From sequence record PP526765: DNA of 64,000 nucleotides, one strand, 5' to 3'. Of the stretch, positions 8,498 through 48,376 are shown in pieces (positions within the stretch are counted from its first letter, which is position 1; every line of letters starts with the position of its first letter). This DNA is from Escherichia phage HK3. Made by a program: the position numbers and the translations under genes. The notes under the pieces are model-generated. The model was not told the origin of the DNA. It was given only the letters and a program-made list of their open reading frames with translations, and did no database searches.

Positions 8498-8574
8498 CTC
8501 TGTTTAGCTCAGCTTGGTAGAGCGTTCCGTTTGGGGCGGTAAGGCCGGAGGTTCAAGTCCTCCAACAGAGACCA
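8498..8574 (+). tRNA. tRNA-Pro (anticodon UGG)
   Basis: manual fold: acceptor CTCTGTT/AACAGAG, D-loop AGCTTGGTA, anticodon loop TTTGGGG, T-arm GGAGG-TTCAAGT-CCTCC, encoded CCA. Confidence 0.75.
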
Positions 8575-8581
8575 AATTAAT

Positions 8582-8659
8582 GTTCCAGTAGACAAAATGG
8601 TATAGTCACCACTCTTTCAAAGTGGATATTTGAGGGTTCAAATCCCTTCTGGAACGCCA
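8582..8659 (+). tRNA. tRNA-Glu (anticodon UUC)
   Basis: manual fold: acceptor GTTCCAG/CTGGAAC, anticodon stem CCACT/AGTGG loop CTTTCAA, T-loop TTCAAAT, CCA. Confidence 0.7.
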
Positions 8660-8666
8660 GTTTTGA

Positions 8667-8740
8667 CAGAAGACCAATTACAGCAAACTTAATCTTATTC
8701 ATCTGAAGGTAAATCGGACAAAGAAGAGATTTGGTCTGGT
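8667..8740 (+). ncRNA. inter-tRNA structured element a (conserved terminal helix)
   Basis: 5' CAGAAGACCAATTACAGCAA ... 3' TTGGTCTGG; terminal 7-bp helix AGACCAA/TTGGTCT. Confidence 0.45.
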
Positions 8741-8750
8741 CATTAAGAAT

Positions 8751-8827
8751 TGCGGGTATAGAGAAAGGGCGTCTCACATGTCTCATTAGCATGGTATCGG
8801 CAGGTTCGACTCCTGCACCCGCCTCCA
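8751..8827 (+). tRNA. tRNA-Met (anticodon CAU; 1:72 mismatch)
   Basis: manual fold: anticodon stem CATGT/GCATG loop CTCATTA, T-arm GCAGG-TTCGACT-CCTGC, acceptor TGCGGGT/ACCCGCC with U1xC72 mismatch, CCA. Confidence 0.6.
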
Positions 8828-8833
8828 AATTTA

Positions 8834-8897
8834 CAGAAGACCGTTTACAGCAATATTTATTAAATTTTTAGCGGAAAAATTGAAAGATACGGTCTGG
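8834..8897 (+). ncRNA. inter-tRNA structured element b
   Basis: 5' CAGAAGACCGTTTACAGCAA ... 3' ACGGTCTGG; helix AGACCGT/ACGGTCT (compensatory to element a); internal hairpin AATTTTT-AGCGG-AAAAATT. Confidence 0.45.
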
Positions 8898-8910
8898 TAA
8901 TACTAAACAT

Positions 8911-8987
8911 GGTTAGGAAGCACATAAGGTATGTGCGGTCGCCTGTTAAGCGAATGGCACAGGGTTCGAATCCCTGACTAACCGCCA
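8911..8987 (+). tRNA. tRNA-Asn (anticodon GUU)
   Basis: manual fold: acceptor GGTTAGG/ACTAACC, anticodon loop CTGTTAA, T-arm CAGGG-TTCGAAT-CCCTG, CCA. Confidence 0.7.
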
Positions 8988-9058
8988 AATTTAGGAGAGA
9001 AGCGATTGCTCACCGATTTGTAAGGTGCAAGTCCTTAGCCTGAATAGAATAATAAAAT

Positions 9059-9145
9059 GTGTCGTTATCCCGTAGATGGTAGCGGTGGGGACTGTAAATC
9101 CCTTGTCATTGAGACTCGGTAGGTTCGACTCCTACACGGCACACC
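9059..9145 (+). tRNA. tRNA-Tyr (anticodon GUA), long variable arm
   Basis: manual fold: acceptor GTGTCGT/ACGGCAC, anticodon stem GGGGA/TCCCT loop CTGTAAA, 15-nt variable arm, T-arm GTAGG-TTCGACT-CCTAC, CCA. Confidence 0.7.
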
Positions 9146-9207
9146 AATTTTGAGAGGGCTATTTAGCCCCTCCCTTAAAGAGTTCTTACGAGTACCCTTT
9201 AAAGGAG

Positions 9208-9281
9208 CAGAAGACCAAATACAGCAAGTTACTTAAAATTTCAAGCCAATTCAATTTTGAAAAATTTAAAACTTGGTCTGG
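9208..9281 (+). ncRNA. inter-tRNA structured element c
   Basis: 5' CAGAAGACCAAATACAGCAA ... 3' TTGGTCTGG; same terminal helix. Confidence 0.45.
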
Positions 9282-9294
9282 CTCAACAAATTTA

Positions 9295-9425
9295 CAGAAG
9301 ACCGTTTACAGCAAAACTTAAACAATCTATTTCTCGGTAAAGAAAAGGTGAAGGTTCGATTCCTTCACTCGGCAGATGTCGAGTTGGTGTAATGGTAGCA
9401 CTTAAGATGATAAACAACGGTCTGG
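9295..9425 (+). ncRNA. candidate Y-RNA-like (YrlA-like) RNA: terminal helix enclosing circularly permuted tRNA-like domain
   Basis: 5' CAGAAGACCGTTTACAGCAA ... 3' ACGGTCTGG helix; inside: T-arm GTGAAGG-TTCGATT-CCTTCAC (9348-9368), closed acceptor-like hairpin ACTCGGC-AGAT-GTCGAGT (9367-9384), D-arm GTGT-AATGGTA-GCAC (9387-9401); no anticodon arm. Confidence 0.5.
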
Positions 9426-9576
9426 TAATTATCTTTGCAGTAGCTTATGTGGCTAATTATATCGTCCCATGAGTGCCGATGAATTTCCTTAGCATGATTC
9501 TAGATTAGCTTAATAGGAAATGACTCTACAGACCCTTTAGCAAGGTCTGCGTAGGTTACTGCAAAGATAATTTAAT

Positions 9577-9652
9577 AGAAGTGTAGCAGAATGGTGATGC
9601 GGCAGACTTTTAATCTGATAGGTGATGGGTTCGAATCCCTCCACTTCTACCA
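9577..9652 (+). tRNA. tRNA-Lys (anticodon UUU)
   Basis: manual fold: acceptor AGAAGTG/CACTTCT, anticodon stem GCAGA/TCTGA loop CTTTTAA, CCA; T-stem weak (3 bp); homologous to Lys-CUU gene with compensatory changes. Confidence 0.6.
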
Positions 9653-9656
9653 ATAT

Positions 9657-9733
9657 GGTTCAGTCGCAGATAAGGTAATGCAGGGGTCTCATAAGCCCTA
9701 TGAATGTGGGTTCGATTCCCATCTGAGCCTCCA
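9657..9733 (+). tRNA. tRNA with anticodon CAU (Met or Ile-lysidine type)
   Basis: manual fold: acceptor GGTTCAG/CTGAGCC, anticodon stem GGGGT/GCCCT loop CTCATAA, T-arm GTGGG-TTCGATT-CCCAT, CCA. Confidence 0.65.
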
Positions 9734-9735
9734 AT

Positions 9736-9811
9736 GCTGTGAAAGCACATATGGATGTGCATTCGGCTGATAACCGAAAGGAAGAAGGTTCGAATCCTTC
9801 TCACAGTACCA
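9736..9811 (+). tRNA. tRNA-Ile (anticodon GAU)
   Basis: manual fold: acceptor GCTGTGA/TCACAGT, D-arm GCAC-ATATGGAT-GTGC, anticodon stem TTCGG/CCGAA loop CTGATAA, T-arm GAAGG-TTCGAAT-CCTTC, CCA. Confidence 0.8.
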
Positions 9812-9826
9812 ATTTCAATAAAGTTG

Positions 9827-9855
9827 TTGACATTGAGATGTGACCACTTTATAGT
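9827..9855 (+). promoter_or_regulatory. sigma70-like promoter (TTGACA-17-TATAGT) internal to tRNA region
   Basis: TTGACA 9827-9832, TATAGT 9850-9855. Confidence 0.6.
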
Positions 9856-10058
9856 AACCTTAGTTTTCGTTGCGTAGCGTCTATTTTGCAAATTTAAAAT
9901 AAATGCAAACGACAATGTTTTTCTGGCAGTAGCTTGATAGGCTAAACACCAGTGAGGTCTTCCAATCCCTCATCAAAGAATTTGGCGTACTAGCCCACGG
10001 TATGATTAATAAGGTGGGCATCTTTAAGGGTTTTTTAAGAGAGTCTTTAAAGATTAAT

Positions 10059-10135
10059 GCACCCTTAGTTCAACTGGACAGAACAAATGACTTCTAATCA
10101 TTAGGTTACAGGTTCGAATCCTGTAGGGTGTGCCA
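10059..10135 (+). tRNA. tRNA-Arg (anticodon UCU)
   Basis: manual fold: acceptor GCACCCT/AGGGTGT, D-arm GTTC-AACTGGACA-GAAC, anticodon stem AATGA/TCATT loop CTTCTAA, T-arm ACAGG-TTCGAAT-CCTGT, CCA. Confidence 0.8.
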
Positions 10136-10277
10136 AATAGTTAGCAGATTGCTTAGACGACCTTATCGGGTCTCCGTGTAGGGAGGTGGTCTGTATCTCA
10201 TGTTTTCCAGAACATGTAAATAATCTGAGAAGGGGCTTTACAGTGTTGAGATAATACGGTAAGCTTCGAATTATAGT

Positions 10278-10360
10278 ATGGGACGATGTTAAGACTCTAA
10301 GGCATGAGCAACGGCTTCCAACACCGTTTCAAAGGGATTCAACTCCTCCGTCCCATGCCA
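10278..10360 (+). tRNA. atypical tRNA-like gene (possible tRNA-Trp, anticodon CCA) with extra nucleotides between acceptor and D-arm
   Basis: perfect 7-bp acceptor ATGGGAC/GTCCCAT + G + CCA; anticodon-like loop TTCCAAC; D-region 8 nt longer than canonical; weak T-stem. Confidence 0.3.
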
Positions 10361-10373
10361 AAGTCTTATTAGG

Positions 10374-10461
10374 GGTAGGTAGCGGCTAATGGTAGCCAAA
10401 CTGTCTTGAAAACAGTTGCCACTGTAGAGATACGGTGAGGGTTCGACTCCTTTACTTACCG
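10374..10461 (+). tRNA. tRNA-Ser (anticodon UGA), long variable arm
   Basis: manual fold: acceptor GGTAGGT/ACTTACC, anticodon stem ACTGT/ACAGT loop CTTGAAA, about 20-nt variable arm, T-arm GAGGG-TTCGACT-CCTTT. Confidence 0.7.
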
Positions 10462-10617
10462 CCTAATAAGATTTAAAGCCAAGCTTCATTCGGATGTTGC
10501 TTTGGTATCCCTCGTGTATTGTCGTACACACTGATAAAGCACCTAGTAGGTGTCACGGAGAAGAGATAATATCAAGCTCTCCAAAGGTTCTAGTCACCGG
10601 ATTAAACAAGACTATGC

Positions 10618-10639
10618 AAAGACCTGTTTAGGTCTTTTT
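10618..10639 (+). terminator. terminator-like hairpin within tRNA region
   Basis: AAAGACC-TGTTTA-GGTCTTT followed by TTT. Confidence 0.3.
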
Positions 10640-10718
10640 AGAGGGCTTCTAAGGTTATTACAGCTTGTTGTGGAACCTTGTTGCTTAGGTTCTTAGAAGT
10701 TCTCTAAAAAGATTTAAT

Positions 10719-10795
10719 GCACCTATAGCCCAACTGGTAGAGGCAGCAGACTTAGAATCTGCTCAGTGTGAGTTCGAATCTCTCTAGGTGTACCA
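10719..10795 (+). tRNA. tRNA with anticodon UAG (Leu by code) but short variable arm
   Basis: manual fold: acceptor GCACCTA/TAGGTGT, anticodon stem GCAGA/TCTGC loop CTTAGAA, 5-nt variable loop, T-loop TTCGAAT, A73, CCA. Confidence 0.55.
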
Positions 10796-10802
10796 AATTA
10801 AT

Positions 10803-10878
10803 GCAGGTGTAGCAAAATGGTTATGCGGCTGACTCTTAATCAGTAAGACGATGGTTTCAATTCCCTCCACCTGTACCA
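10803..10878 (+). tRNA. tRNA-Lys (anticodon CUU)
   Basis: manual fold: acceptor GCAGGTG/CACCTGT, anticodon stem GCTGA/TCAGT loop CTCTTAA, CCA; paralog of Lys-UUU with compensatory stem changes. Confidence 0.6.
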
Positions 10879-10884
10879 GACATT

Positions 10885-10960
10885 GGGGATGTAGTTTACA
10901 TGGTTAAAACATAAGTTTTGCAAACTTAAGTACAGGGTTCAATTCCCTGCTTCTCCACCA
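10885..10960 (+). tRNA. tRNA-Ala (anticodon UGC)
   Basis: manual fold: acceptor GGGGATG/CTTCTCC with G3-U70 wobble (Ala identity), D-arm GTTT-ACATGGTTA-AAAC, anticodon stem TAAGT/ACTTA loop TTTGCAA, T-arm CAGGG-TTCAATT-CCCTG, CCA. Confidence 0.7.
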
Positions 10961-10966
10961 ATTAGT

Positions 10967-11041
10967 GCATCCATAGTTTAAACGGGAAAATTACAGTCTT
11001 CCAAACTGAGGTTGAGGGTTCGATTCCCTCTGGATGCTCCA
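10967..11041 (+). tRNA. tRNA-Gly (anticodon UCC)
   Basis: manual fold: acceptor GCATCCA/TGGATGC, anticodon loop CTTCCAA, T-arm GAGGG-TTCGATT-CCCTC, CCA. Confidence 0.7.
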
Positions 11042-11047
11042 AATAAT

Positions 11048-11124
11048 GCTGCTTTCGTATAATTGGCTATTACACATCCCTTGTAAGGATGGAAATGCAG
11101 GTTCGAGTCCTGTGAGCAGCACCA
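11048..11124 (+). tRNA. tRNA-Thr (anticodon UGU)
   Basis: manual fold: acceptor GCTGCTT/GAGCAGC, anticodon stem CATCC/GGATG loop CTTGTAA, T-arm GCAGG-TTCGAGT-CCTGT, CCA. Confidence 0.75.
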
Positions 11125-11219
11125 ATTCAGAGGTCAAGTGAAAGACCGCTGGTGTCAACTGAAGACCGTAACAAATTCCACGGAGTTGAGTTAGCGGCAC
11201 AACTTCAGACCTCTTTCAT

Positions 11220-11294
11220 ACTCGCTTAGTTTATATGGTAAAACACCACCCTTACAAGATGAAGAAAAAGGTTCAAGTCCTTTAGTGAGTACCA
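11220..11294 (+). tRNA. tRNA-like gene, possible tRNA-Val (anticodon UAC); weak anticodon stem
   Basis: acceptor ACTCGCT/AGTGAGT, D-arm GTTT-ATATGGTA-AAAC, T-arm AAAGG-TTCAAGT-CCTTT, CCA; anticodon stem only 3/5 paired. Confidence 0.4.
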
Positions 11295-11295
11295 T

Positions 11296-11373
11296 GTTCC
11301 AATATCCCAATTGGCAGAGGATGCAAGCTCAAACCTTGTACTAGTGACGGTTCGAATCCGTCTTGGAACACCA
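11296..11373 (+). tRNA. tRNA with anticodon CAA (Leu by code) but short variable arm
   Basis: manual fold: acceptor GTTCCAA/TTGGAAC, Leu-like D-loop AATTGGCAGAG, anticodon stem GCAAG/CTTGT loop CTCAAAC, 6-nt variable loop, T-arm GACGG-TTCGAAT-CCGTC, A73, CCA. Confidence 0.55.
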
Positions 11374-11487
11374 ATTTTGGGAGAGCACTATGAGTGATAA
11401 GTCAATAGCAAAAAAGTTTAGAGCGTCATACCTAAACAGACGTAAAAACAAAGATTGTGAAAAACTGTATGGTGTTCTTGTAGGTAA

Positions 11488-11563
11488 GCAGGATTAGTTC
11501 AAATGGATAGAGCAGCAGTCTACGAAGCTGTTAATAGGGGTTCGAATCCCTTATCCTGCGCCA
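11488..11563 (+). tRNA. tRNA-Arg (anticodon ACG)
   Basis: manual fold: acceptor GCAGGAT/ATCCTGC, D-arm GTTC-AAATGGATA-GAGC, anticodon stem GCAGT/GCTGT loop CTACGAA, T-arm AGGGG-TTCGAAT-CCCTT, CCA. Confidence 0.75.
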
Positions 11564-11582
11564 ATTTTAAGAGGCTATTTAG

Positions 11583-12140
11583 ATGAGATATTTGAAGTAT
11601 GCTTCATGGATTTTCCTAGCTTTGTTAGACCCATTGGCAGCAACCTTAGCAGTTATCTTAGCACCTTTTGTAGTTCCATTCTACAGTGAGAAGAAAGGGC
11701 ACTTACCTTTCGGCTTCAGATGGATGGAGACATATGACAACCCAATTGATGGTGATAAAGGTCATGTTGAACGATGGGCTAAGATTAGAAAGATTGGTAA
11801 GCTTGGTGTCTATATGCAGAGAGTCGGTTGGCTCTGGAGAAACAAAGCTTATAACTTCTCTTACCATGTGTTAGGAAGAGATGTAAAAGATGTTACTAAG
11901 TGGAAAGGTAATATCAACGTAAGCTCTGACCCTGAAGATAATCAGACAGGTTATCTCCTAATGTGGAACAGTAATGCTTGGGGATTATTCGCTTTTATCC
12001 CATCAATTAAAGTCTTTGGTAAACAATTCTACTGGAGAATTTATATTGGGTGGAAACTAAAAAGTGTTGTCCCAGAAGAAAGAGCATTCTCAAGGGAAAG
12101 AGTTATGTTGGCATTCTTTATTCATCCACTGAGAAAGTAA
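11583..12140 (+). CDS. hypothetical membrane-anchored protein embedded in tRNA array
   Basis: 185 aa, ATG with AAGAGG upstream; N-terminal hydrophobic segment ASWIFLALLDPLAATLAVILAPFVVPF. Confidence 0.5.
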   Translation: MRYLKYASWIFLALLDPLAATLAVILAPFVVPFYSEKKGHLPFGFRWMETYDNPIDGDKGHVERWAKIRKIGKLGVYMQRVGWLWRNKAYNFSYHVLGRDVKDVTKWKGNINVSSDPEDNQTGYLLMWNSNAWGLFAFIPSIKVFGKQFYWRIYIGWKLKSVVPEERAFSRERVMLAFFIHPLRK

Positions 12141-12148
12141 AGATTTAA

Positions 12149-12224
12149 AGGGGATTAGTTTACAAGGTTAAAACCTCGGTCTTTGAAATCGAAGAAGTTG
12201 GTTCAATTCCAACATCCCCCGCCA
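12149..12224 (+). tRNA. tRNA-Gln (anticodon UUG)
   Basis: manual fold: acceptor AGGGGAT/ATCCCCC (A1xC72), D-arm GTTT-ACAAGGTTA-AAAC, anticodon stem TCGGT/ATCGA loop CTTTGAA, T-arm GTTGG-TTCAATT-CCAAC, CCA. Confidence 0.65.
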
Positions 12225-12226
12225 AT

Positions 12227-12305
12227 GCTCCATTACTCCAATTGGCAGAGAGGCCAGACTTAAAATCTGTGTTATGTATCGGTTCGAATCCGATATGGAG
12301 TACCA
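12227..12305 (+). tRNA. tRNA with anticodon UAA (Leu by code) but short variable arm
   Basis: manual fold: acceptor GCTCCAT/ATGGAGT, Leu-like D-loop AATTGGCAGAG, anticodon loop CTTAAAA, 7-nt variable loop, T-arm ATCGG-TTCGAAT-CCGAT, A73, CCA. Confidence 0.55.
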
Positions 12306-12310
12306 AATTT

Positions 12311-12386
12311 AGCGGTATAGCATAACTGGCAATGCAACAGTCTCTGAAGCTGTCTTATTAAGGTTCAAATCCTTATGCCGCTGCCA
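12311..12386 (+). tRNA. tRNA-Gln (anticodon CUG)
   Basis: manual fold: acceptor AGCGGTA/TGCCGCT, D-arm GCAT-AACTGGCA-ATGC, anticodon stem ACAGT/GCTGT loop CTCTGAA, T-arm TAAGG-TTCAAAT-CCTTA, CCA. Confidence 0.7.
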
Positions 12387-12417
12387 CTTCTAAGGATTCT
12401 TACGAGAGTCCTTAAAT

Positions 12418-12493
12418 GTGGCCTTATCATAAACGGTAATGACCCATGCTGTGAACATGGTCTATACGGGTTCAAATCCCGTAGGTCACCCCA
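12418..12493 (+). tRNA. tRNA-His (anticodon GUG)
   Basis: manual fold: acceptor GTGGCCT/AGGTCAC, D-arm TCAT-AAACGGTA-ATGA, anticodon stem CCATG/CATGG loop CTGTGAA, T-arm ACGGG-TTCAAAT-CCCGT, C73, CCA. Confidence 0.75.
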
Positions 12494-12498
12494 ATTTA

Positions 12499-12575
12499 TA
12501 GTCCAAGTAGCTTATATGGTTAAAGCGCGTGTCTGAAAAACATGAGAAGAGGGTTCAAATCCCACTGGATTACCA
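12499..12575 (+). tRNA. tRNA-Phe (anticodon GAA); acceptor/D junction atypical
   Basis: D-arm GCTT-ATATGGTTA-AAGC, anticodon stem CGTGT/ACATG loop CTGAAAA, T-loop TTCAAAT; acceptor TAGTCCA/TGGATTA leaves 4 nt before D-stem. Confidence 0.5.
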
Positions 12576-12591
12576 ATTTCAAAGGTGCTTA

Positions 12592-13326
12592 ATGAAAGAG
12601 ATGACAGAACAAGGTAAGGAGATTTTTAATCTCTTAAAAACTGGTAAAGGGTTTTCTAACCCCCTTATTACTGGTGCAGCAGTTCTCGGTGGAACCGTAG
12701 CTGCCTCTACATCACTTGTAAGCTCTATTAGCTCTGTAACAGACCCTACAATAAAGGATAAACTTATTGCTGCTGGACTTACAACAGTTCTGCTTAACAG
12801 CTTTACAACGAGTCTGACAAGCACTACAGCAACTACTAAGACCCTAACAGACTATGGTCAAAAATCTATTGATGAGTTTTCATCACGTATGCAGGTAGCA
12901 AAGGGATACTCCAATGTTATGGGTGCAGTAGGAGAACAAGTTGGTTGTACACCATTTAGTGGTATTATGGGTGTTGCTACAGAGTATGGTCAAAAAGCTA
13001 TGGATACAATTAACAGCACACTAGATGGCGTTAATGATGTATTAAGCGACTTACAGGATGCTATTGATAAAGGTCTTAATACTATTTCTGATTTAGCTAA
13101 CCAAGCTGTTAGTAAGATTAATGAAGGTATCTCAAAGATTACAGCTTATGCAGATGAAGTTGTGCAGATGATTGAAGAAGAAGCTGCCCTTATTGCAGAG
13201 TACCTTAAAACGAATATCAATGGGTTCTTAGCAGGTATCTTACCAGACTGGTTTGATGATGCTTGTAAAACTGGTGTGATTGACACTATTGCAACACCAG
13301 AAATGAAGAACGCATTACAGAAATAA
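12592..13326 (+). CDS. hypothetical Ser/Thr-rich protein
   Basis: ATG at 12592 with AAAGGTG upstream (track ORF from 12529 would overlap tRNA-Phe); 244 aa. Confidence 0.5.
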   Translation: MKEMTEQGKEIFNLLKTGKGFSNPLITGAAVLGGTVAASTSLVSSISSVTDPTIKDKLIAAGLTTVLLNSFTTSLTSTTATTKTLTDYGQKSIDEFSSRMQVAKGYSNVMGAVGEQVGCTPFSGIMGVATEYGQKAMDTINSTLDGVNDVLSDLQDAIDKGLNTISDLANQAVSKINEGISKITAYADEVVQMIEEEAALIAEYLKTNINGFLAGILPDWFDDACKTGVIDTIATPEMKNALQK

Positions 13327-13327
13327 C

Positions 13328-13420
13328 GGAAGATTAACCCTAAAAGGTAAGGGAGCAGTTTGCTAAACTGCCAGTAGCTGAGAAATCGGTGTACCAGTTC
13401 AAGTCTGGTATCTTCCTCCA
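13328..13420 (+). tRNA. tRNA-Ser (anticodon GCU), long variable arm
   Basis: manual fold: acceptor GGAAGAT/ATCTTCC, anticodon stem GCAGT/ACTGC loop TTGCTAA, long variable arm, T-arm ACCAG-TTCAAGT-CTGGT, CCA. Confidence 0.7.
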
Positions 13421-13424
13421 ATTT

Positions 13425-13500
13425 GAATCCGTGACAGAAATGGCTATGTACCTGTCTGCAAAACAGGTTTATAAGGGTTCGAGTCCCTTCGGATTCTCCA
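13425..13500 (+). tRNA. tRNA-Cys (anticodon GCA)
   Basis: manual fold: acceptor GAATCCG/CGGATTC, anticodon stem CCTGT/ACAGG loop CTGCAAA, T-arm AAGGG-TTCGAGT-CCCTT, U73 (Cys identity), CCA. Confidence 0.75.
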
Positions 13501-43108: not shown

Positions 43109-44209
43109 TTATTCGTAGTCTCGAATAACTAACCCGACAGGGAACTGTAAAGACCCCTTACGAGTCATCTTCTGGAACTGAACCGTTAAAGGTTTCCCGA
43201 TAAACTCTTCAGGATGCTCAGCAAGGTACTGTTTTTTCTCATGAGTAGTCTTCCATGAGACATCTACAAAGACGTTAGGAAGAGTCTCTACAACGAACTT
43301 ACCATGACCACGTTTATCGGTCTTGACACCAGTCACTTTAAACTCTTCAGTGTGCATCTTCTTGTGCTTAATCAAGAAGTATGAACGGTGACAACACTCA
43401 TAGAAGGAGTCTTCAGAGATTGAACGGTACATTGCACCTTCAAACTTAGCTTCAACCCACTTATCATGAGCTTCATCAAACTCTTCCCAAGAATTTACAC
43501 GACGAGATTTAACAGGAACAACTTTACAGCCATCTCTAAAGTCATTCAATGGTGAAGTCTCAATAATATCTCTACGCTCAGGCCACGTCTTAGTACTGTC
43601 ACAGATATCATACCAGTAGAACTGGAGTAGATGTCGGTCTGGATTGTCAGCATTCTTAATCATAGACACAATATCTTCTAAGTCCCAACCATGAGCATAA
43701 ATCTCACCATCAAAGTCTTCGACTTGTGGATGTAATTTAAGCAACAAAAGCAAATCTGGGATTAGTTCTGCTGGGACGTTGTAAACAGTATTCTCACGAG
43801 AATAAGCCGTGAAACTAACTGAATCAGCGTCTCTTGAAATTCTACAACGTACACCATCCAGTTTCGGTTGAGCATCAGCAGGGAATATCAAATACTTTGC
43901 ATGACTAACCTTTGCAGCATCATGAGCAAGCTGTACACCTACCTTCTCAGTATTCTGTGCAGACTCTTTTGTGTAAGCATAACCCTTGCGGTCAACTTGC
44001 TTTTTATACTTAGCAGCAACTTCAAAGAGGGCTTGCTGTTCAGCGTTACGCTCATTCTTTTTACCGATGTTCTTAGGCTCTGCTGTATACTCTTCAAACA
44101 TCATCTTGCCATTCTCTTTACCATAGGTTGTAATAACTTTGTCACCTACAGCAACGCATGACCAGACATTGAAAGAACCATCTTTATTTTGTTTGTACAG
44201 AATTGTCAT
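43109..44209 (-). CDS. ATP-dependent DNA ligase
   Basis: adenylation motif KLDGVRC (KxDGxR), FDGEIY, EGAMYR; 366 aa as in T7-type ligases. Confidence 0.8.
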   Translation of the reverse strand: MTILYKQNKDGSFNVWSCVAVGDKVITTYGKENGKMMFEEYTAEPKNIGKKNERNAEQQALFEVAAKYKKQVDRKGYAYTKESAQNTEKVGVQLAHDAAKVSHAKYLIFPADAQPKLDGVRCRISRDADSVSFTAYSRENTVYNVPAELIPDLLLLLKLHPQVEDFDGEIYAHGWDLEDIVSMIKNADNPDRHLLQFYWYDICDSTKTWPERRDIIETSPLNDFRDGCKVVPVKSRRVNSWEEFDEAHDKWVEAKFEGAMYRSISEDSFYECCHRSYFLIKHKKMHTEEFKVTGVKTDKRGHGKFVVETLPNVFVDVSWKTTHEKKQYLAEHPEEFIGKPLTVQFQKMTRKGSLQFPVGLVIRDYE

Positions 44210-44421: not shown

Positions 44422-44640
44422 TTAAAATGATAAGTCAATGCTAATACGTTCACCCTTAAGGACTCCTGTGCGGTCTCTTGCAATCTTACCGTCAACGATA
44501 ATGATATGCGCAGACATTAAGGAGTCACGATTAAAACCTTTTACGAGCTTACTAGGCATTACTACAATAAGCATCTCCTGAATCAACTCTGGAGTATAGC
44601 AATTGTCGTGAAGTTGCTGAATAACGTCTGAAAGTGTCAT
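44422..44640 (-). CDS. hypothetical protein
   Basis: 72-aa ORF. Confidence 0.4.
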   Translation of the reverse strand: MTLSDVIQQLHDNCYTPELIQEMLIVVMPSKLVKGFNRDSLMSAHIIIVDGKIARDRTGVLKGERISIDLSF

Positions 44641-44701
44641 ATGACCTCCTATACAAGATATAGTATAAGGTACTCTTCCATGAGCACCTTGTCAATACTA
44701 A

Positions 44702-45265
44702 TCAGTGTACTTCAAGCCAATTTTTACCAACTTTACCAGTACCAGTTACAAGCGTTTCCTCCTTAAGCCCTAAATTTCTTGACGCTTGACCATACATCCA
44801 GTCAATTACTGCTTTAACATCCTGCGTCATGTCTTCTGGGCACTCCCAACTATTCTCATCGTGATATGCTAAAAGCAATCTAGCGCCAATAGCTGGTTTT
44901 CGACCATTCAACTTTGTAAGACCCTCTTCACAAGTTCTTCTACAAGCAAGGTTGATGGCTTCATTCTGAACCTGACTTTCAGAACCCATAAGCAAATAAT
45001 TCAATAACTTATGTGGAGATTTACACCACAACCAAGCTCCAGCAACCTTTACAAAACCCCCTTTAGAGATTGCGGCAGTCTTACCAAATACCTCTTCAAG
45101 AGCCTTCTTAGTGGCTTTGAAGTCTGCTTCTAAATTATCCAGCAGCTTCTTAATTTTAGGGAGACGTACAAAGTATGTTTGCTTAGTTAAAGCACCTTCC
45201 TCAGTTGTAGATGCTTTAATCGTCTTAGCAAATTTCTCATCGCCAGCCCCGAACAATACATCTGG
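44702..45265 (-). CDS. DNA polymerase family A, C-terminal segment (motif B end + motif C)
   Basis: LFGAGDEKFAKT matches T7 Pol LYGAGDEK; LLAYHDENSWECPED carries motif C HDE; no ATG in frame (track start is TTG), frame open back to 45265. Confidence 0.7.
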   Translation of the reverse strand, partial: PDVLFGAGDEKFAKTIKASTTEEGALTKQTYFVRLPKIKKLLDNLEADFKATKKALEEVFGKTAAISKGGFVKVAGAWLWCKSPHKLLNYLLMGSESQVQNEAINLACRRTCEEGLTKLNGRKPAIGARLLLAYHDENSWECPEDMTQDVKAVIDWMYGQASRNLGLKEETLVTGTGKVGKNWLEVH

Positions 45266-46064
45266 TCAATACACTCGCAAGGTGTACCAGTTCTCTTATG
45301 AACTTCTCCGCATTTCTACGGAGTGTCGGACTATATCACGTAGCAGTGATGCTACCGTTGCACTTGGGGATGGTCATTAGCTTACCACCCTACTCTACTC
45401 AGTTCATACGTTAAGTATGCTTTTCGATAGTCTCTGAACGTTTCTCTGTTAGGAATCTCTATAGTTATATCATTTGCTTAGATAGTCAATTGCTCTTTGC
45501 ATGTTATCAACACTATCTGCAAGCAACCCCAAAGCTCTGTTGCAATTGTGGCATAACATACCTCTTACCTTTCCGGTTTTATGGTCATGGTCAACAACAA
45601 GTTTAGCCTTGTGTCGTGAACCATTCATGATAAAACCTTCACCGCCACAAATTTGACATTTGTAATCACAGTCACGGAGTAGAGCCTCAACCTCTTCTCT
45701 TTCCAATCCATATGTTCTTAGGTAGTAATTCTTAACTCTACCTTTCTCACCGCAATGTGACGAACAATAAACTTGCCTTGCTGTTCTCGGCATGAACACC
45801 TTCTCACAACTAGGGCATTTCTTAGTAAGAACCCTGTGTTCTGCCCTTCTGTCAAACTTTAATACACAACTTCTGCACCGTTTCTGATTGTATTGATATG
45901 GTTTAAACTCCGTACCACACTCAGTGCATAATCTCTCTTCGTAACCTGCCATTGTCTCTCTCCTTTGTTTTAGGAGTCCTAACAGAGACTTCGCTGCTGA
46001 TTACCATATCTTTACAGACTTAGGCTTCCAGCAATTCACAACGTTTTACATGCGCCACTGACGC
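45266..46064 (-). mobile_element. intervening sequence in DNA polymerase gene carrying HNH endonuclease (candidate group I intron / homing element)
   Basis: about 800 bp separating pol motif B halves; upstream and downstream pol segments in different frames; contains free-standing HNH ORF with its own AAGGAG RBS. Confidence 0.55.
45470..45952 (-). CDS. HNH homing endonuclease
   Basis: VVDHDHKTGKVRGMLCHNCNRALG HNH motif; N-terminal CxxC zinc fingers; 160 aa. Confidence 0.8.
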   Translation of the reverse strand: MAGYEERLCTECGTEFKPYQYNQKRCRSCVLKFDRRAEHRVLTKKCPSCEKVFMPRTARQVYCSSHCGEKGRVKNYYLRTYGLEREEVEALLRDCDYKCQICGGEGFIMNGSRHKAKLVVDHDHKTGKVRGMLCHNCNRALGLLADSVDNMQRAIDYLSK

Positions 46065-48203
46065 ATAGATGCCATTTTTGGCTTTCTTACGACCTTTACT
46101 AATTTCTTGAAGAAGACTTGTATCCTGAGTAGCTCGACATGTCAAGATGTCTTCCTCTTTATTAAGACTGAAGTAGATACTATTCAAAGTGTGTGCATCA
46201 GTCCCTGAGTACACCACGTATAAGTCATTTTCAGAATCATAATGTAAATACTTGTCAATAGCTGGGTTTAGATACTGGTCAAAATGTTTGCAATAGTATC
46301 TACCATCCTCTTGTTTGACAAATTCAACCTCTTCTTTACCCTCTGTCACCGCTTTAGTGAAATCTTTATCGCCCATAAAGTTACACAGTAGCACAAGTTG
46401 GGCGCTATTCATGTCGGCTGAAACAATATTAGTACCTTCTTCACAAGTCCAAACTTCCCTCATAGGTGCTCCATAGACAGCAGCACCAGACGGTACGTTT
46501 ACAATACCATATTGTGTCATACGTCCAGTTGAAGTACCAAATACCATTGCACCAGCACTAAGGCGACCATCAGGACGAATCTGGTTCAACCAACCTTTTT
46601 CATCATCCTTTGAGTTCTCAATAGTTCTGCGTCGGTGCATCAAAGTATAGTACTTAGCAATCTTCTGTCCAAGCTCACCTTCAATCGTATCATAAGATGA
46701 TTCAGTAAGTTTTGGTGAAGTACGGATTAAGCAAGGCTCAAGCAAATCTGTGTACTTCTTCACAGACCAGTTATGTTCAATGTACTGGACACCTTCATGT
46801 TCAACATAACTCAAACCACACCGTTCCACCATCTCATCCCACTTAGGATGTTTTGTAATCATCTTTTTGTTGTCTTTGAAACGACAAACCTTCACAGGAC
46901 GACCATCTGAGTCTTTCTTGTAGTTCCAGTCATCTGGAATCCAACCAACTGATTTCAAGTAGTCTTTAACAACTGCTACCTGAGTCATACGAGAAACTTC
47001 GAACTCAATTGGTGTATATGGTGCATCAATCAAACCTGTGTAGCGACTTGACTCAAGTTCAAAGTGGTTAACAACATGGCTGTTATAGTACTTCACAGTT
47101 TTAACTGTTTTTACTGGCTTCCAGTCTTTGCACTTCTTACCAATCTTTGCATTCAACTCATTGCAAATTGCACGAGCATCCTTCATTGCTACAAAACCTT
47201 CCTTGTACTCTTCACCAGTTACAGAGTTAGTTGGTGTATAGCAATTTCTCTTTTCAATGTTAAAAATCTTTGTAGTTGGCTTACCAAATGGCTTGATTTC
47301 ATATGTCTGCATCTCACCGTTACGTACCTGCTGACGATACTTTGTCTTAGGGTACTTGGTAATCCTCTTCAGTCCATCTGCATGACCAAATGTTTCAACA
47401 TACTCATTCCAAGCCTTTGCAAACTCTTCTCCAGTAACTTTACCTTTGGTTTTAATAGTTGGAGGAAGATGTGGTTCAACTTCTGAAGCAAGCTCATTAG
47501 TCAACTTGTCAAGTTCCTTTACATGAAACTCCATAAGCTCTTTATCAGCTTTCCAACCATTGATAGCCTGTTGACTCATCCAGAAAGATGTTTCTTTAGC
47601 TCGCATGTAGGTTTCATAGGTGTCTACGCCACACTTCTTTAGCTTCAGATATTCATTATCCAATGCACGTTTAGTTTTGGCGTTGATGCGGATATCTTCT
47701 ACAACACGAGTGAAGATTTCTGCATTCCACACACCCCAATGTTCAATCTCTGGTTTACGGACACCAACACGAGCACCCCATGCTGCCAAGCCATGAGCAC
47801 CTTTATAGCCTTTTGGAGTTGGTCTATCCATCCATTGAACACGAGACTGGATAAGAGAATCCTGAAAGAAATTACTCCACGGCTTACACTTTGGATTATC
47901 AAAGTTCCACAAATCTGGTGCAATGTGATTGAAAACCCACCAGTCATACCCCAGACCATTATGGATGCAAAGTCGTTTTGCCTTTAACGCAAATTCAACA
48001 CCTTCACGTAAGCCGCCCTTGATGTACTTGGTATACTTGTGACCGAGGATAGGCTCATCTGTAAAGACCCATACAGGTGGCTCTTCATCGTCAGATTTAT
48101 AGTCTGCGAAAGCCATTACGTGTACTTTAGTGAACTCAAGGAGTAAACCATCAGTTTCTGTATCACCAACCAAATGTAAGTTTTTAAAATCTACGTTTTC
48201 CAT
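46020..48203 (-). CDS. DNA polymerase family A, N-terminal segment (3'-5' exonuclease + palm through motif B start)
   Basis: Exo I VGDTETDGL; motif A-like SADMNSAQLVLL; RKKAKNGIY beginning of motif B, then frame runs into stop. Confidence 0.85.
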   Translation of the reverse strand: MENVDFKNLHLVGDTETDGLLLEFTKVHVMAFADYKSDDEEPPVWVFTDEPILGHKYTKYIKGGLREGVEFALKAKRLCIHNGLGYDWWVFNHIAPDLWNFDNPKCKPWSNFFQDSLIQSRVQWMDRPTPKGYKGAHGLAAWGARVGVRKPEIEHWGVWNAEIFTRVVEDIRINAKTKRALDNEYLKLKKCGVDTYETYMRAKETSFWMSQQAINGWKADKELMEFHVKELDKLTNELASEVEPHLPPTIKTKGKVTGEEFAKAWNEYVETFGHADGLKRITKYPKTKYRQQVRNGEMQTYEIKPFGKPTTKIFNIEKRNCYTPTNSVTGEEYKEGFVAMKDARAICNELNAKIGKKCKDWKPVKTVKTVKYYNSHVVNHFELESSRYTGLIDAPYTPIEFEVSRMTQVAVVKDYLKSVGWIPDDWNYKKDSDGRPVKVCRFKDNKKMITKHPKWDEMVERCGLSYVEHEGVQYIEHNWSVKKYTDLLEPCLIRTSPKLTESSYDTIEGELGQKIAKYYTLMHRRRTIENSKDDEKGWLNQIRPDGRLSAGAMVFGTSTGRMTQYGIVNVPSGAAVYGAPMREVWTCEEGTNIVSADMNSAQLVLLCNFMGDKDFTKAVTEGKEEVEFVKQEDGRYYCKHFDQYLNPAIDKYLHYDSENDLYVVYSGTDAHTLNSIYFSLNKEEDILTCRATQDTSLLQEISKGRKKAKNGIYASVAHVKRCELLEA

Positions 48204-48264
48204 TTTTTACTCCCTCTAAAACCATTAACCTCATACATTACTGCAAAAAATTATAAAAAGCAAG

Positions 48265-48293
48265 TTGACAATGCACTTGACAAGGTGTTAATC
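48265..48293 (+). promoter_or_regulatory. candidate promoter with conserved spacer motif
   Basis: TTGACA 48265-48270 + spacer ATGCACTTGACAAGGTG (13-mer ACTTGACAAGGTG at 48275-48287) + TTAATC. Confidence 0.4.
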
Positions 48294-48376
48294 TTTGCGA
48301 AGTGGGTTTTTACTTAAAAGGTTACTTAACAGTTTAACTATACAGATACTTTAAAACTCTTAAAAGATTATTTAAT

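Follow-up and report, generated by a model that had tools for sequence, protein, structure and literature searches.

Self-splicing group I introns interrupt the family A DNA polymerase genes of phages SPO1, SP82, Bastille and Pf-WMP3 (endonucleases I-HmuI, I-HmuII, I-BasI and I-PfoP3I), and likewise those of the T7-like phages PhiI and W31 (endonuclease I-TslI). The PhiI/W31 introns are said to have been reported originally by Bonocora and Shub in 2004. In E. coli Pol I numbering, the PhiI/W31 introns lie at position 881 and those of the SPO1 group and Pf-WMP3 at position 674; the Pf-WMP3 intron is of the IA2 type, without P2, and carries its endonuclease ORF in P6a (PMC3428280). The Pseudomonas phages LUZ24 and JHP have a group I intron with an endonuclease VII (Endo VII)-type gene in motif B of the family A polymerase. 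The LUZ24 DNA polymerase intron was reportedly described by Ceyssens and colleagues in 2008. Its splicing has been confirmed in vivo (Putzeys et al., 2024; PMC10914365). Polymerase introns have also been recorded in the T7-like Yersinia phages Berlin and YpP-G, and the corresponding proteins of the Felixounavirus phages JH2, EC6, FSL SP-010 and '2 JES-2013' have been identified as intron-encoded and assigned to the DHHRN family (Fang et al., 2018; PMC6083498). The genome announcement of phage Meda mentions an ORF-less intron in the polymerase gene (PMC6486253), and its GenBank record annotates this intron and gives the polymerase as a joined CDS. These are one-line mentions; for a Felixounavirus intron, the searchable literature yielded neither a structure nor a mapped insertion site nor an assay of splicing, and no RNA evidence of splicing in HK3 or any other member of the genus.

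We analysed a 64,000-nt stretch of DNA (the window) from Escherichia phage HK3 (record PP526765), a Felix O1-like phage (Felixounavirus). An insert of 802 nt (46060..45259, minus strand) interrupts motif B of the family A DNA polymerase gene and leaves two parts on that strand, 48203..46061 and 45258..44702. We conclude that this insert is very probably a mobile self-splicing group I intron of the IA2 type, placed in the O-helix of motif B. The intron is real, well explained and already known, having been noted before in close relatives: the same element occurs with its ORF in JH2, EC6, FSL SP-010 and '2 JES-2013' and without it in Meda. The JH2 region is 97.1% identical to that of HK3 at the DNA level, and the endonucleases are 99.4% identical. 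Nothing material distinguishes HK3 from the other Felixounavirus copies, and it represents another isolate. Biologically this is a textbook case, and the added value lies in the exact splice sites, the fold and the location in motif B. The locus is laid out as follows.

46061..48203, minus strand: polymerase exon 1, 2143 nt; last base U46061, after the first base of codon 715 (Leu)
48203..46020, minus strand: upstream polymerase ORF (ORF list), 727 aa, C-terminus ...GRKKAKNGIYASVAHVKRCELLEA and stop
46020..46022, minus strand: UAA stop of the exon 1 frame, 39-41 nt inside the intron
45259..46060, minus strand: group I intron, 802 nt, predicted IA2 type, without P2
45965-45960, minus strand: Shine-Dalgarno (SD) sequence AAGGAG of the endonuclease ORF, 8 nt 5' of the ATG
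45470..45952, minus strand: predicted homing-endonuclease ORF in the P6a loop, 160 aa, with its own ATG
44702..45258, minus strand: polymerase exon 2, 557 nt with the stop codon; carries motif C (YHDE) and the remainder of motif B
45256..44702, minus strand: downstream polymerase ORF, 184 aa; starts (L)FGAGDEKF and contains AYHDE, motif C

The first-pass annotation of this DNA had described a polymerase ORF running off into unrelated residues and a second polymerase ORF resuming in another frame with LFGAGDEKF and motif C. Both observations hold: the exon 1 frame adds 13 residues and then stops, and the two ORFs differ in frame ((48203-45256) mod 3 = 1, as is 802 mod 3). The junction that it had implied within motif B now falls exactly at 46061/45258. 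The exon 1 boundary was set by alignment with the relative LMP33, an intron-less homolog of the kind that had been proposed for comparison, which lacks the insert and is uninterrupted at exactly the codon concerned (...TATGCA/CTGCTGTTCGG..., within the allele ...ATCTATGCACTGCTGTTCGGTGCAGG...). In silico removal of the 802 nt gives a single ORF of 899 aa that reads AKNGIYA-L-LFGAGDEKF, is colinear with uninterrupted homologs and has motif B rebuilt as AKNGIYALLFGAGDEKF; the predicted junction is ...AUCUAUGCGU/UAUUGUUCGGGG... in the spliced RNA and ...NGIYALLFGAGDEK... in the peptide. As they stand, the two pieces score below the Pfam cutoff for DNA_pol_A (18 and 26.7 bits vs 34.3), and unspliced RNA would yield a 727-aa polymerase cut off in motif B and ending ...ASVAHVKRCELLEA.

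The sequence on either side of the internal ORF folds into a group I core, whose elements are listed here from 5' to 3' (all on the minus strand).

46050..46066: P1, exon AUGCGU (46066-46061) paired with the internal guide GCGCAU (46055-46050)
45995..46043: P3 5' strand (46043-46037), then P4-P5-P5a (46033-45995), from the Rfam alignment and pair counts
45977..45994: 5' strands of P6 and P6a (GCG ... UCUCUGUUAGGA), with their partner at 45454-45438
45438..45454: 3' strands of P6a and P6 (UCCUAACAGAGA ... CGU), from pairing analysis
45328..45434: 3' half of the catalytic core, from the Rfam alignment of ORF-less copies, comprising the next six elements
45434-45428: P7 5' strand G-GACUA, the R element
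45419-45405: P7.1 (CAUAC/GUAUG)
45390-45367: P7.2 (GGGUGGU/ACCA-U-CCC), with a G-C to G·U change among variants
45362-45356: P3' strand
45355-45340: P8, followed by J8/7; compensatory C-G to U-A change, U·G intermediate also seen
45333-45328: P7 3' strand UAGUCC, the S element
45259..45323: P9, P9.1 and P9.2; the intron ends with guanosine 45259 (omega-G)

In HK3, each of the 87 pairs proposed for P1 and P3-P10 is a standard pair. Among 10 variants, 99.6% of cells pair compared with 29-45% when the partners are slid, a comparison in which the fold has an advantage because it was drawn from the same sequences that were scored. U46061 and G46055 form the U·G pair at the 5' splice site; P1 pairs in every one of the 10 variants, in all of which this U·G and the terminal G45259 are invariant. 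The P1 loop CAGUG (46060-46056), likewise invariant in the 10 variants, makes P10 with the first five nucleotides of exon 2 (UAUUG). The region from P3 to P5a holds the classical P and Q core elements and a GUAA tetraloop, and the R (GUUCAGAGACUA) and S (GAUAUAGUCC) elements match the consensus alignment of Rfam family RF00028. P6a shows two compensatory pairs among the variants, and in ORF-less forms a short loop closes the stem. In total there are three compensatory pairs among close relatives (P6a and P8); most helices are invariant in the genus, and thus covariation support from close relatives is thin. By inspection, rather than with a subgroup-specific model, and using the criterion quoted in PMC3428280, we assign the intron to the predicted subgroup IA2, as P7.1 and P7.2 lie between P7 and P3' and the linker AACUGAGUAGAGUA ends in GUA.

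A search with group I models, which had been suggested at the outset, agrees with this fold. RF00028 matches the HK3 intron partially, over P3-P6 (24.6 bits, E=1e-3; gathering score 50 bits), and matches natural ORF-less or ORF-deleted copies of 268-311 nt over their full length (62.2-63.8 bits, E~1e-14). The core of these ORF-less copies is 97-100% identical to that of HK3, and the HK3 copy falls below the gathering score because its 483-nt ORF, an insertion of about 530 nt in P6a, breaks the model. Across the whole 64-kb window, Rfam at the gathering threshold returned tRNAs only and a scan by E-value returned nothing further. Neither scan is sensitive to introns that carry an ORF, so the window may contain others.

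The internal ORF was first taken to be a free-standing HNH gene with its own ribosome-binding site. It does have its own ATG and an AAGGAG, but the HNH label has to be replaced by Endo VII (DHHRN). Residues 79-159 of 160, at the C-terminus, match Pfam Endonuclease_7 (PF02945; 71.4 bits vs a cutoff of 23.6, 6e-20), and the protein aligns with Hpy99I (1.4e-5) and T4 Endo VII (5e-3). In the alignment with these two enzymes the catalytic residues D121, H122, H124, R130 and N138 and the zinc ligands C99, C102, C134 and C137 are all present, and both sets are kept in each of the five aligned homologs that are intron-encoded. At E<=0.01, Pfam gave no match to a canonical HNH family, and apart from Endonuclease_7 there were weak zinc-ribbon matches only. 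Canonical HNH identity was therefore dropped in favour of the Endonuclease_7 match; the two belong to the same beta-beta-alpha-metal superfamily, and DHHRN enzymes are told from HNH enzymes by the absence of the central Asn (Fang et al., 2018; PMC6083498). The family assignment is unambiguous from Pfam, PDB and tblastn, and the ORF is predicted to encode an Endo VII-type (DHHRN) His-Me finger homing endonuclease. Its C-terminal catalytic motif is that of F-CphI from cyanophage S-PM2, the founding DHHRN homing endonuclease, which is 33% identical over 96% of the HK3 protein and has been placed in the same 'endonuclease clade' as the HK3-type enzyme (Fang et al., 2018; PMC6083498). However, F-CphI is free-standing beside the psbA intron and targets psbA, whereas an intron encodes the HK3 enzyme, whose target is presumably the polymerase gene. 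A hairpin that would sequester the endonuclease SD can be drawn in HK3, VSe102 and the Yersinia phage, and sequestration as in T4 introns is a possibility for HK3; the predicted hairpin is about as stable as in shuffled sequence in HK3 (z = -0.7) and VSe102 (z = -0.6) and is suggestive in the Yersinia phage (z = -2.4).

About a third of Felixounavirus records contain the intron (roughly 96 with the core, about 41 with the ORF), and inserts of 780-805 nt with identical boundaries occur in many independently sequenced phages. The ORF may be intact, decayed (as in VpaE1, by a 22-nt deletion), reduced to a remnant or absent, and the ORF-less inserts of 268 nt share the exact boundaries of the ORF-bearing insert. 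All stages in the life cycle of a homing endonuclease are represented in the genus. Exon identity is 64-83% in comparisons in which the 3' 190 nt of the intron are 96-100% identical; between GEC_NS7 (with the intron) and LMP33 (without it), exons are 95-97% identical outside a stretch that reaches about 30 nt upstream of the site and 100 nt downstream. These patterns of exon and intron divergence show what appears to be horizontal spread with co-conversion.

The reading of the locus as a group I intron with a homing endonuclease, which the first-pass annotation had favoured, is borne out by the core fold, RF00028 and the restored 899-aa ORF. The sequences show directly where the intron begins and ends, the rebuilt ORF, the core fold with its place in Rfam, the nuclease family with its catalytic residues intact, and a population record of spread, decay and loss; from these we infer that HK3 splices the intron and makes an active endonuclease. 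For splicing, the transcript would fold into the P1 and P3-P10 core, and an external guanosine would attack after U46061, held by the U·G pair of P1. The freed 3' OH of exon 1 would then attack after the terminal G45259, with P10 aligning the exons, and ligation would give the intact 899-aa polymerase (...AKNGIYALLFGAGDEKF...). In a mixed infection, the endonuclease would cleave or nick polymerase alleles that lack the intron, close to the insertion site, and repair would copy the intron and some flanking exon sequence into the cut allele; such promotion of homing is suggested indirectly by the tract that resembles co-conversion and by the contrast between intron and exon divergence. The appropriate annotation for the polymerase of HK3 and of many relatives in GenBank is a single joined CDS (899 aa) with an intron-encoded endonuclease.

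The alternative with most to commend it is that the polymerase is made as two associating polypeptides (727 and 184 aa) and that the insert is an unspliced, free-standing endonuclease cassette, a split-gene arrangement that had been raised initially. Most GenBank records do list two 'DNA polymerase' CDSs and an 'endonuclease VII', the second ORF has a possible TTG start, and splicing in Felixounavirus is a prediction from sequence. However, no SD is evident ahead of that TTG, the interruption cuts the O-helix itself, separating the Lys/Tyr of motif B from the residues after it, and the exon 1 frame would append 13 unrelated residues. Furthermore, the flanks of the ORF make up a complete group I core (62-64 bits without the ORF), a gene cassette leaves the 268-nt ORF-less inserts at the same boundaries unexplained, and the related LUZ24 intron is spliced in vivo. 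We give two separate polypeptides only a slim chance.

Slimmer still is the chance that the intron RNA is a decayed remnant that does not self-splice, so that a host or phage factor is needed, or the polymerase is inactive and another is used. Here too the evidence on splicing in HK3 comes from its sequence, and the endonuclease gene is decaying in some isolates such as VpaE1, which means that the element is not under uniform selection. Nevertheless, no core helix is damaged, nor is any of the P, Q, R and S elements; they are near-invariant, with compensatory changes where they vary. The phages are viable lytic isolates, and no second polymerase was seen in the polymerase region. A frameshift or chimeric insert introduced by sequencing or assembly is a generic possibility that we regard as practically negligible, because the same insert and boundaries recur in dozens of independently sequenced Felixounavirus genomes, and 802 nt of structured sequence holding an intact ORF cannot be put down to a frameshift. 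An intein, set aside from the start, is likewise excluded because the frames differ, the exon 1 frame stops 13 codons into the 802-nt insert and the ORF comes with a start and SD of its own; there is also no Hint domain (Pfam).

Outside Felixounavirus, the closest kin of the HK3 intron are the polymerase introns of the LUZ24-like Pseudomonas phages and the T7-like Yersinia phages, not that of SPO1. The comparison with SPO1-type polymerase introns made initially survives as an analogy only, as the SPO1 group is inserted at position 674 and HK3 in motif B. From E. coli Pol I numbering and a T7-like alignment, we place the HK3 site near position 764. It differs from the published polymerase-intron sites 674, 676 and 881. 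The endonucleases also differ, those of PhiI/W31, the SPO1 group and Pf-WMP3 being canonical HNH enzymes and that of HK3 being of the Endo VII type. The PhiI/W31 ORF lies in P6a, as in HK3.

The JHP intron (39 bits with RF00028) is homologous to that of HK3 in codon and phase and has the 5' core CAUGUAAAAC..GUGUGAAUU in common, whereas LUZ24 is interrupted 6 nt upstream of the HK3 site, within the Tyr codon of AKTFIY. Both have P1 pairing and splice-site features equivalent to those of HK3, and their endonucleases are 52% (LUZ24) and 41% (JHP) identical to that of HK3, but most helix sequences differ and the phages are unrelated in genome type (podovirus-like, about 45-49 kb). The T7-like Yersinia phages Berlin and YpP-G resemble HK3 in having a compact IA2-type intron in motif B, which we examined in record OR671239. 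This intron (680 nt) lies 11 nt upstream of the HK3 site (AKTF^IYG, phase 2) and keeps all helices and their order with mostly other sequences, the P9.1 segment AGUUCAUAAGAGAAC being common to both. Its endonuclease gene, which begins in the P6a region and extends at its 3' end to the start of P7, encodes an Endo VII-type protein 51% identical to that of HK3. We considered whether this T7-like homolog might be the published PhiI/W31 intron and rejected this, as the latter lies at 881 with the HNH enzyme I-TslI (PMC3428280). In silico splicing restores motif B in all three of the Yersinia phage, JHP and LUZ24 introns.

Taken with Felixounavirus, these are IA2 introns at three sites within 11 nt: -11 in the T7-like Yersinia phages, -6 in LUZ24, and 0 in Felixounavirus and JHP, with endonucleases 41-55% identical, in four unrelated phage groups. 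We tentatively suggest, at somewhat less than even odds, that motif B of family A polymerases may be an uncharted intron hot-spot. If it is, an endonuclease lineage that sees one conserved target would have repeatedly swapped introns or dragged introns to neighbouring positions, and Felixounavirus, in which the ORF ranges from intact through decayed and remnant to absent and some sites are empty, would be a natural system for the full homing cycle. Related introns and endonucleases lying 0, 6 and 11 nt apart could help in the study of changes of partner and position.

The window derives from a Felix O1-like myovirus of the genus Felixounavirus, and over 44600-48300 it shares 97-98% identity with Salmonella phage vB Seyj1-1 and with Escherichia phages pEP20 and JH2. 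Three minus-strand ORFs occupy the polymerase locus, arranged exactly as the first-pass annotation had described:

48203..46020, minus strand: polymerase ORF 1, 727 aa, with the C-terminal end ...GRKKAKNGIYASVAHVKRCELLEA and a stop
45952..45470, minus strand: endonuclease ORF, 160 aa, with AAGGAG upstream
45256..44702, minus strand: polymerase ORF 2, 184 aa, starting (L)FGAGDEKF and including AYHDE

The frame calculation agreed with that annotation in placing the two polymerase pieces in different reading frames. Both match DNA_pol_A in Pfam with sub-cutoff scores, which is to be expected of pieces of a polymerase that is itself divergent. The T7-type motif B pattern predicts U46061 as the last base of exon 1 and U45258 as the first base of exon 2. 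In silico excision of the intervening 802 nt (46060..45259) gave a single 899-aa ORF reading ...SKGRKKAKNGIYALLFGAGDEKFAKTIK..., and the spliced protein is colinear with uninterrupted homologs. A query containing the spliced junction matched 302 phage records, and in many of these, for example vB_EcoM_LMP33, its 800 nt aligned unbroken. Alignment of the intron-less LMP33 junction (...ATC TAT GCA C^TG CTG TTC GG...) with that of interrupted genomes (...ATC TAT GCG T-insert-TA TTG TTC GG...) fixes the insertion after base 1 of the Leu codon 3' of AKNGIYA.

At the Rfam gathering threshold, the insert gave no match to the group I intron model RF00028. At a permissive threshold, the P3-P6 part of the model was found directly 3' of exon 1 (24.6 bits, E=1e-3); on the window copy the full model fails to align, as one of the helices is interrupted by the ORF. 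Natural ORF-less copies of 268 nt (IME338, BPS17L1 and Meda) and copies of 302-311 nt with the ORF cleanly deleted (GEC_vB_NS7 and S19cd) have identical boundaries, and score 62.2-63.8 bits over the whole of RF00028 (cutoff 50, E~1e-14). By these scores, the insert is a group I intron. Its helices were assigned by inspection and from the RF00028 alignment of the ORF-less and ORF-deleted copies:

P1: AUGCGU/GCGCAU, with the splice-site U in a U·G pair
P10: CAGUG/UAUUG
P3: CGUUGUG/UGCAACG
P4: UGCUGG/UCAGCA
P5/P5a: GUAA tetraloop
P6: GCG/CGU
P6a: UCUCUGUUAGGA/UCCUAACAGAGA
P7: G-GACUA/UAGUCC
P7.1: CAUAC/GUAUG
P7.2: GGGUGGU/ACCA-U-CCC
P8: GUAGCA/UGCUAC
P9, P9.1 and P9.2: within 45259..45323, minus strand

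P2 is absent from the assigned fold, and the terminal G at 45259 is the final intron base. Standard pairs occur at all 87 of the 87 proposed positions in the window. Over 10 variants, pairing holds in 99.6% of cells, compared with 29-45% when partners are slid. Because these variants are close relatives with most helices invariant, and the structure was itself derived from them, the independent Rfam score is the main evidence. Among these variants, compensatory double changes were found at two pairs of P6a and in P8 (C-G to U-A via a U·G intermediate), and P7.2 shows a G-C to G·U change. Furthermore, P7.1 and P7.2 are placed between P7 and P3', joined by a linker ending in GUA, the arrangement that PMC3428280 quotes for subgroup IA2.

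The endonuclease gene is positioned in the P6a loop, as are the ORFs of the PhiI, W31 and Pf-WMP3 polymerase introns (PMC3428280). Its 160-aa product matches Endonuclease_7 (PF02945; 71.4 bits, cutoff 23.6), and aligns to catalytic segments of the restriction enzyme Hpy99I (E=1.4e-5) and T4 endonuclease VII (E=5e-3). D121, H122, H124, R130, N138 and four zinc cysteines are all kept, and it is these residues that define the DHHRN family (Fang et al. 2018, PMC6083498). The first-pass annotation had called this an HNH ORF with its own ribosome-binding site. The AAGGAG bears out the latter; in Pfam the ORF matched none of the canonical HNH families, so the HNH label is right only at superfamily level. 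A predicted SD-sequestering hairpin in the window was no better than shuffled sequence. The interruption itself is confirmed, and the earlier preference for a group I intron with a homing endonuclease is supported by the boundaries, the restored ORF, the RF00028 scores and the Endonuclease_7 match; judged by sequence, this is a mobile group I intron of the ordinary kind, carrying a putative Endo VII-type homing endonuclease.

Outside Felixounavirus, the nearest relatives of the endonuclease are intron-encoded proteins of other polymerase genes. That of OR671239, a T7-like Yersinia phage, shares 51% identity and lies in a 680-nt intron at AKTF^IYGFLYG, in which every helix is kept in the same order with mostly different sequence. 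In Pseudomonas phage JHP (41% identical), a 710-nt intron scoring 39 bits against RF00028 matches the window's intron in both codon and phase of insertion. LUZ24 gp35 (52% identical) is similarly encoded in a 669-nt intron, which interrupts the Tyr codon of AKTFIY. In an ungapped motif B alignment, these insertion points lie 11 nt (Yersinia), 6 nt (LUZ24) and 0 nt (JHP) upstream of the window's. We found no report of such staggered positions in print, and this motif B hot-spot pattern is the only mildly novel angle here. The motif B site presumably corresponds to about E. coli position 764. It is separate from the polymerase-intron sites tabulated at E. coli positions 674, 676 and 881 (PMC3428280). 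Splicing of the LUZ24 intron in vivo has been established with RT-PCR and with sequencing of full-length cDNA (PMC10914365); from the fold and this validated relative, we infer that the HK3 intron probably splices and that its endonuclease would be active.

The polymerase junction was matched in 302 records, the intron core (coverage at least 80%) in about 96 and the endonuclease, at 60% identity or more, in about 41. In Escherichia phage vB_EcoM-VpaE1 (record L011:259-719), a 22-nt deletion disrupts the endonuclease ORF of an otherwise intact intron; the annotation splits this decaying homing-endonuclease gene into a 'hypothetical protein' ORF and, overlapping it, a truncated 'endonuclease VII' ORF. 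In GEC_NS7 and S19cd, the ORF is reduced to its last codons. Between intron-bearing phages, exons 31-300 nt from the junction are merely 64-83% identical and the 3' 190 nt of the intron 96-100% identical. Outside a tract reaching about 30 nt upstream and 100 nt downstream of the site, the exons of GEC_NS7 (with intron) and LMP33 (without) are 95-97% identical. These patterns are what horizontal spread of an intron would be expected to leave, with co-conversion of exon sequence and, later, decay and loss of the endonuclease. The synonymous junction differences, GCGU^UAUUG versus GCAC^UGCUG, are exactly the bases required for P1 and P10.

The Felixounavirus polymerase intron is already known. 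No introns were reported in the genome paper of Felix O1, whose own polymerase is intact at 906 aa (PMC3185647). Fang et al. (2018, PMC6083498) listed the Endo VII-motif proteins of JH2, EC6, FSL SP-010 and 2 JES-2013 as intron-encoded, and placed those of Berlin, YpP-G and LUZ24 in introns of polymerase genes; between JH2 and the window, the endonuclease is 99.4% identical. The announcement of Meda (PMC6486253) mentions that its polymerase gene has an intron lacking the ORF, and the Meda GenBank record joins the two polymerase exons. We found in print no structure, exact site mapping or splicing test for the Felixounavirus intron.

In the LUZ24 RefSeq record (NC_010325; L015:1000-3306), the spliced polymerase is kept as separate, unjoined CDSs ('DNA polymerase part II', 'endonuclease VII' and 'DNA polymerase'), a habit common to most Felixounavirus records. 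Felixounavirus-like polymerase sequence with the window's intron also occurs in MG065664.1 and MG065668.1 ('Campylobacter phage A132/A126'), and OK283618.1 ('Listeria phage LPML1') carries such polymerase sequence and, at another place in the genome, a separate partial match to the intron core; the host labels or sample purity of these records look doubtful.

In two N4-like Schitoviridae, Shigella phage Moonfish (L012:2467-3375) and Erwinia phage MIF8 (L013:2467-3480), a region with 77-79% identity to the P3-P6 core of the window's intron lies just past the annotated end of an RNA polymerase RNAP2 subunit gene. Next come, in Moonfish, an HNH endonuclease gene and then a short 'RNA polymerase' ORF and, in MIF8, an unannotated ORF at the same place as the HNH gene; the arrangement looks like an unannotated group I intron that would split the RNAP2 gene.

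In most relatives examined, a free-standing HNH endonuclease gene (~170 aa) abuts or overlaps the polymerase stop (for example L001:1268-, L003:1555-, L004:2062-, L005:1525- and L008:3325-3837 in the comparison records), a second mobile-endonuclease presence/absence polymorphism at this locus. Downstream of the polymerase stop, the window (44640-44702) is without it, and has small ORFs and then a DNA ligase gene (43109-44209). Finally, by Rfam, 23 closely packed tRNA genes lie on the plus strand at 8498-13497, as is typical of Felix O1-like phages; for the one at 10374-10461, the tRNA score is only 33 bits and the tRNA-Sec score 39 bits, the latter falling short of that family's cutoff.
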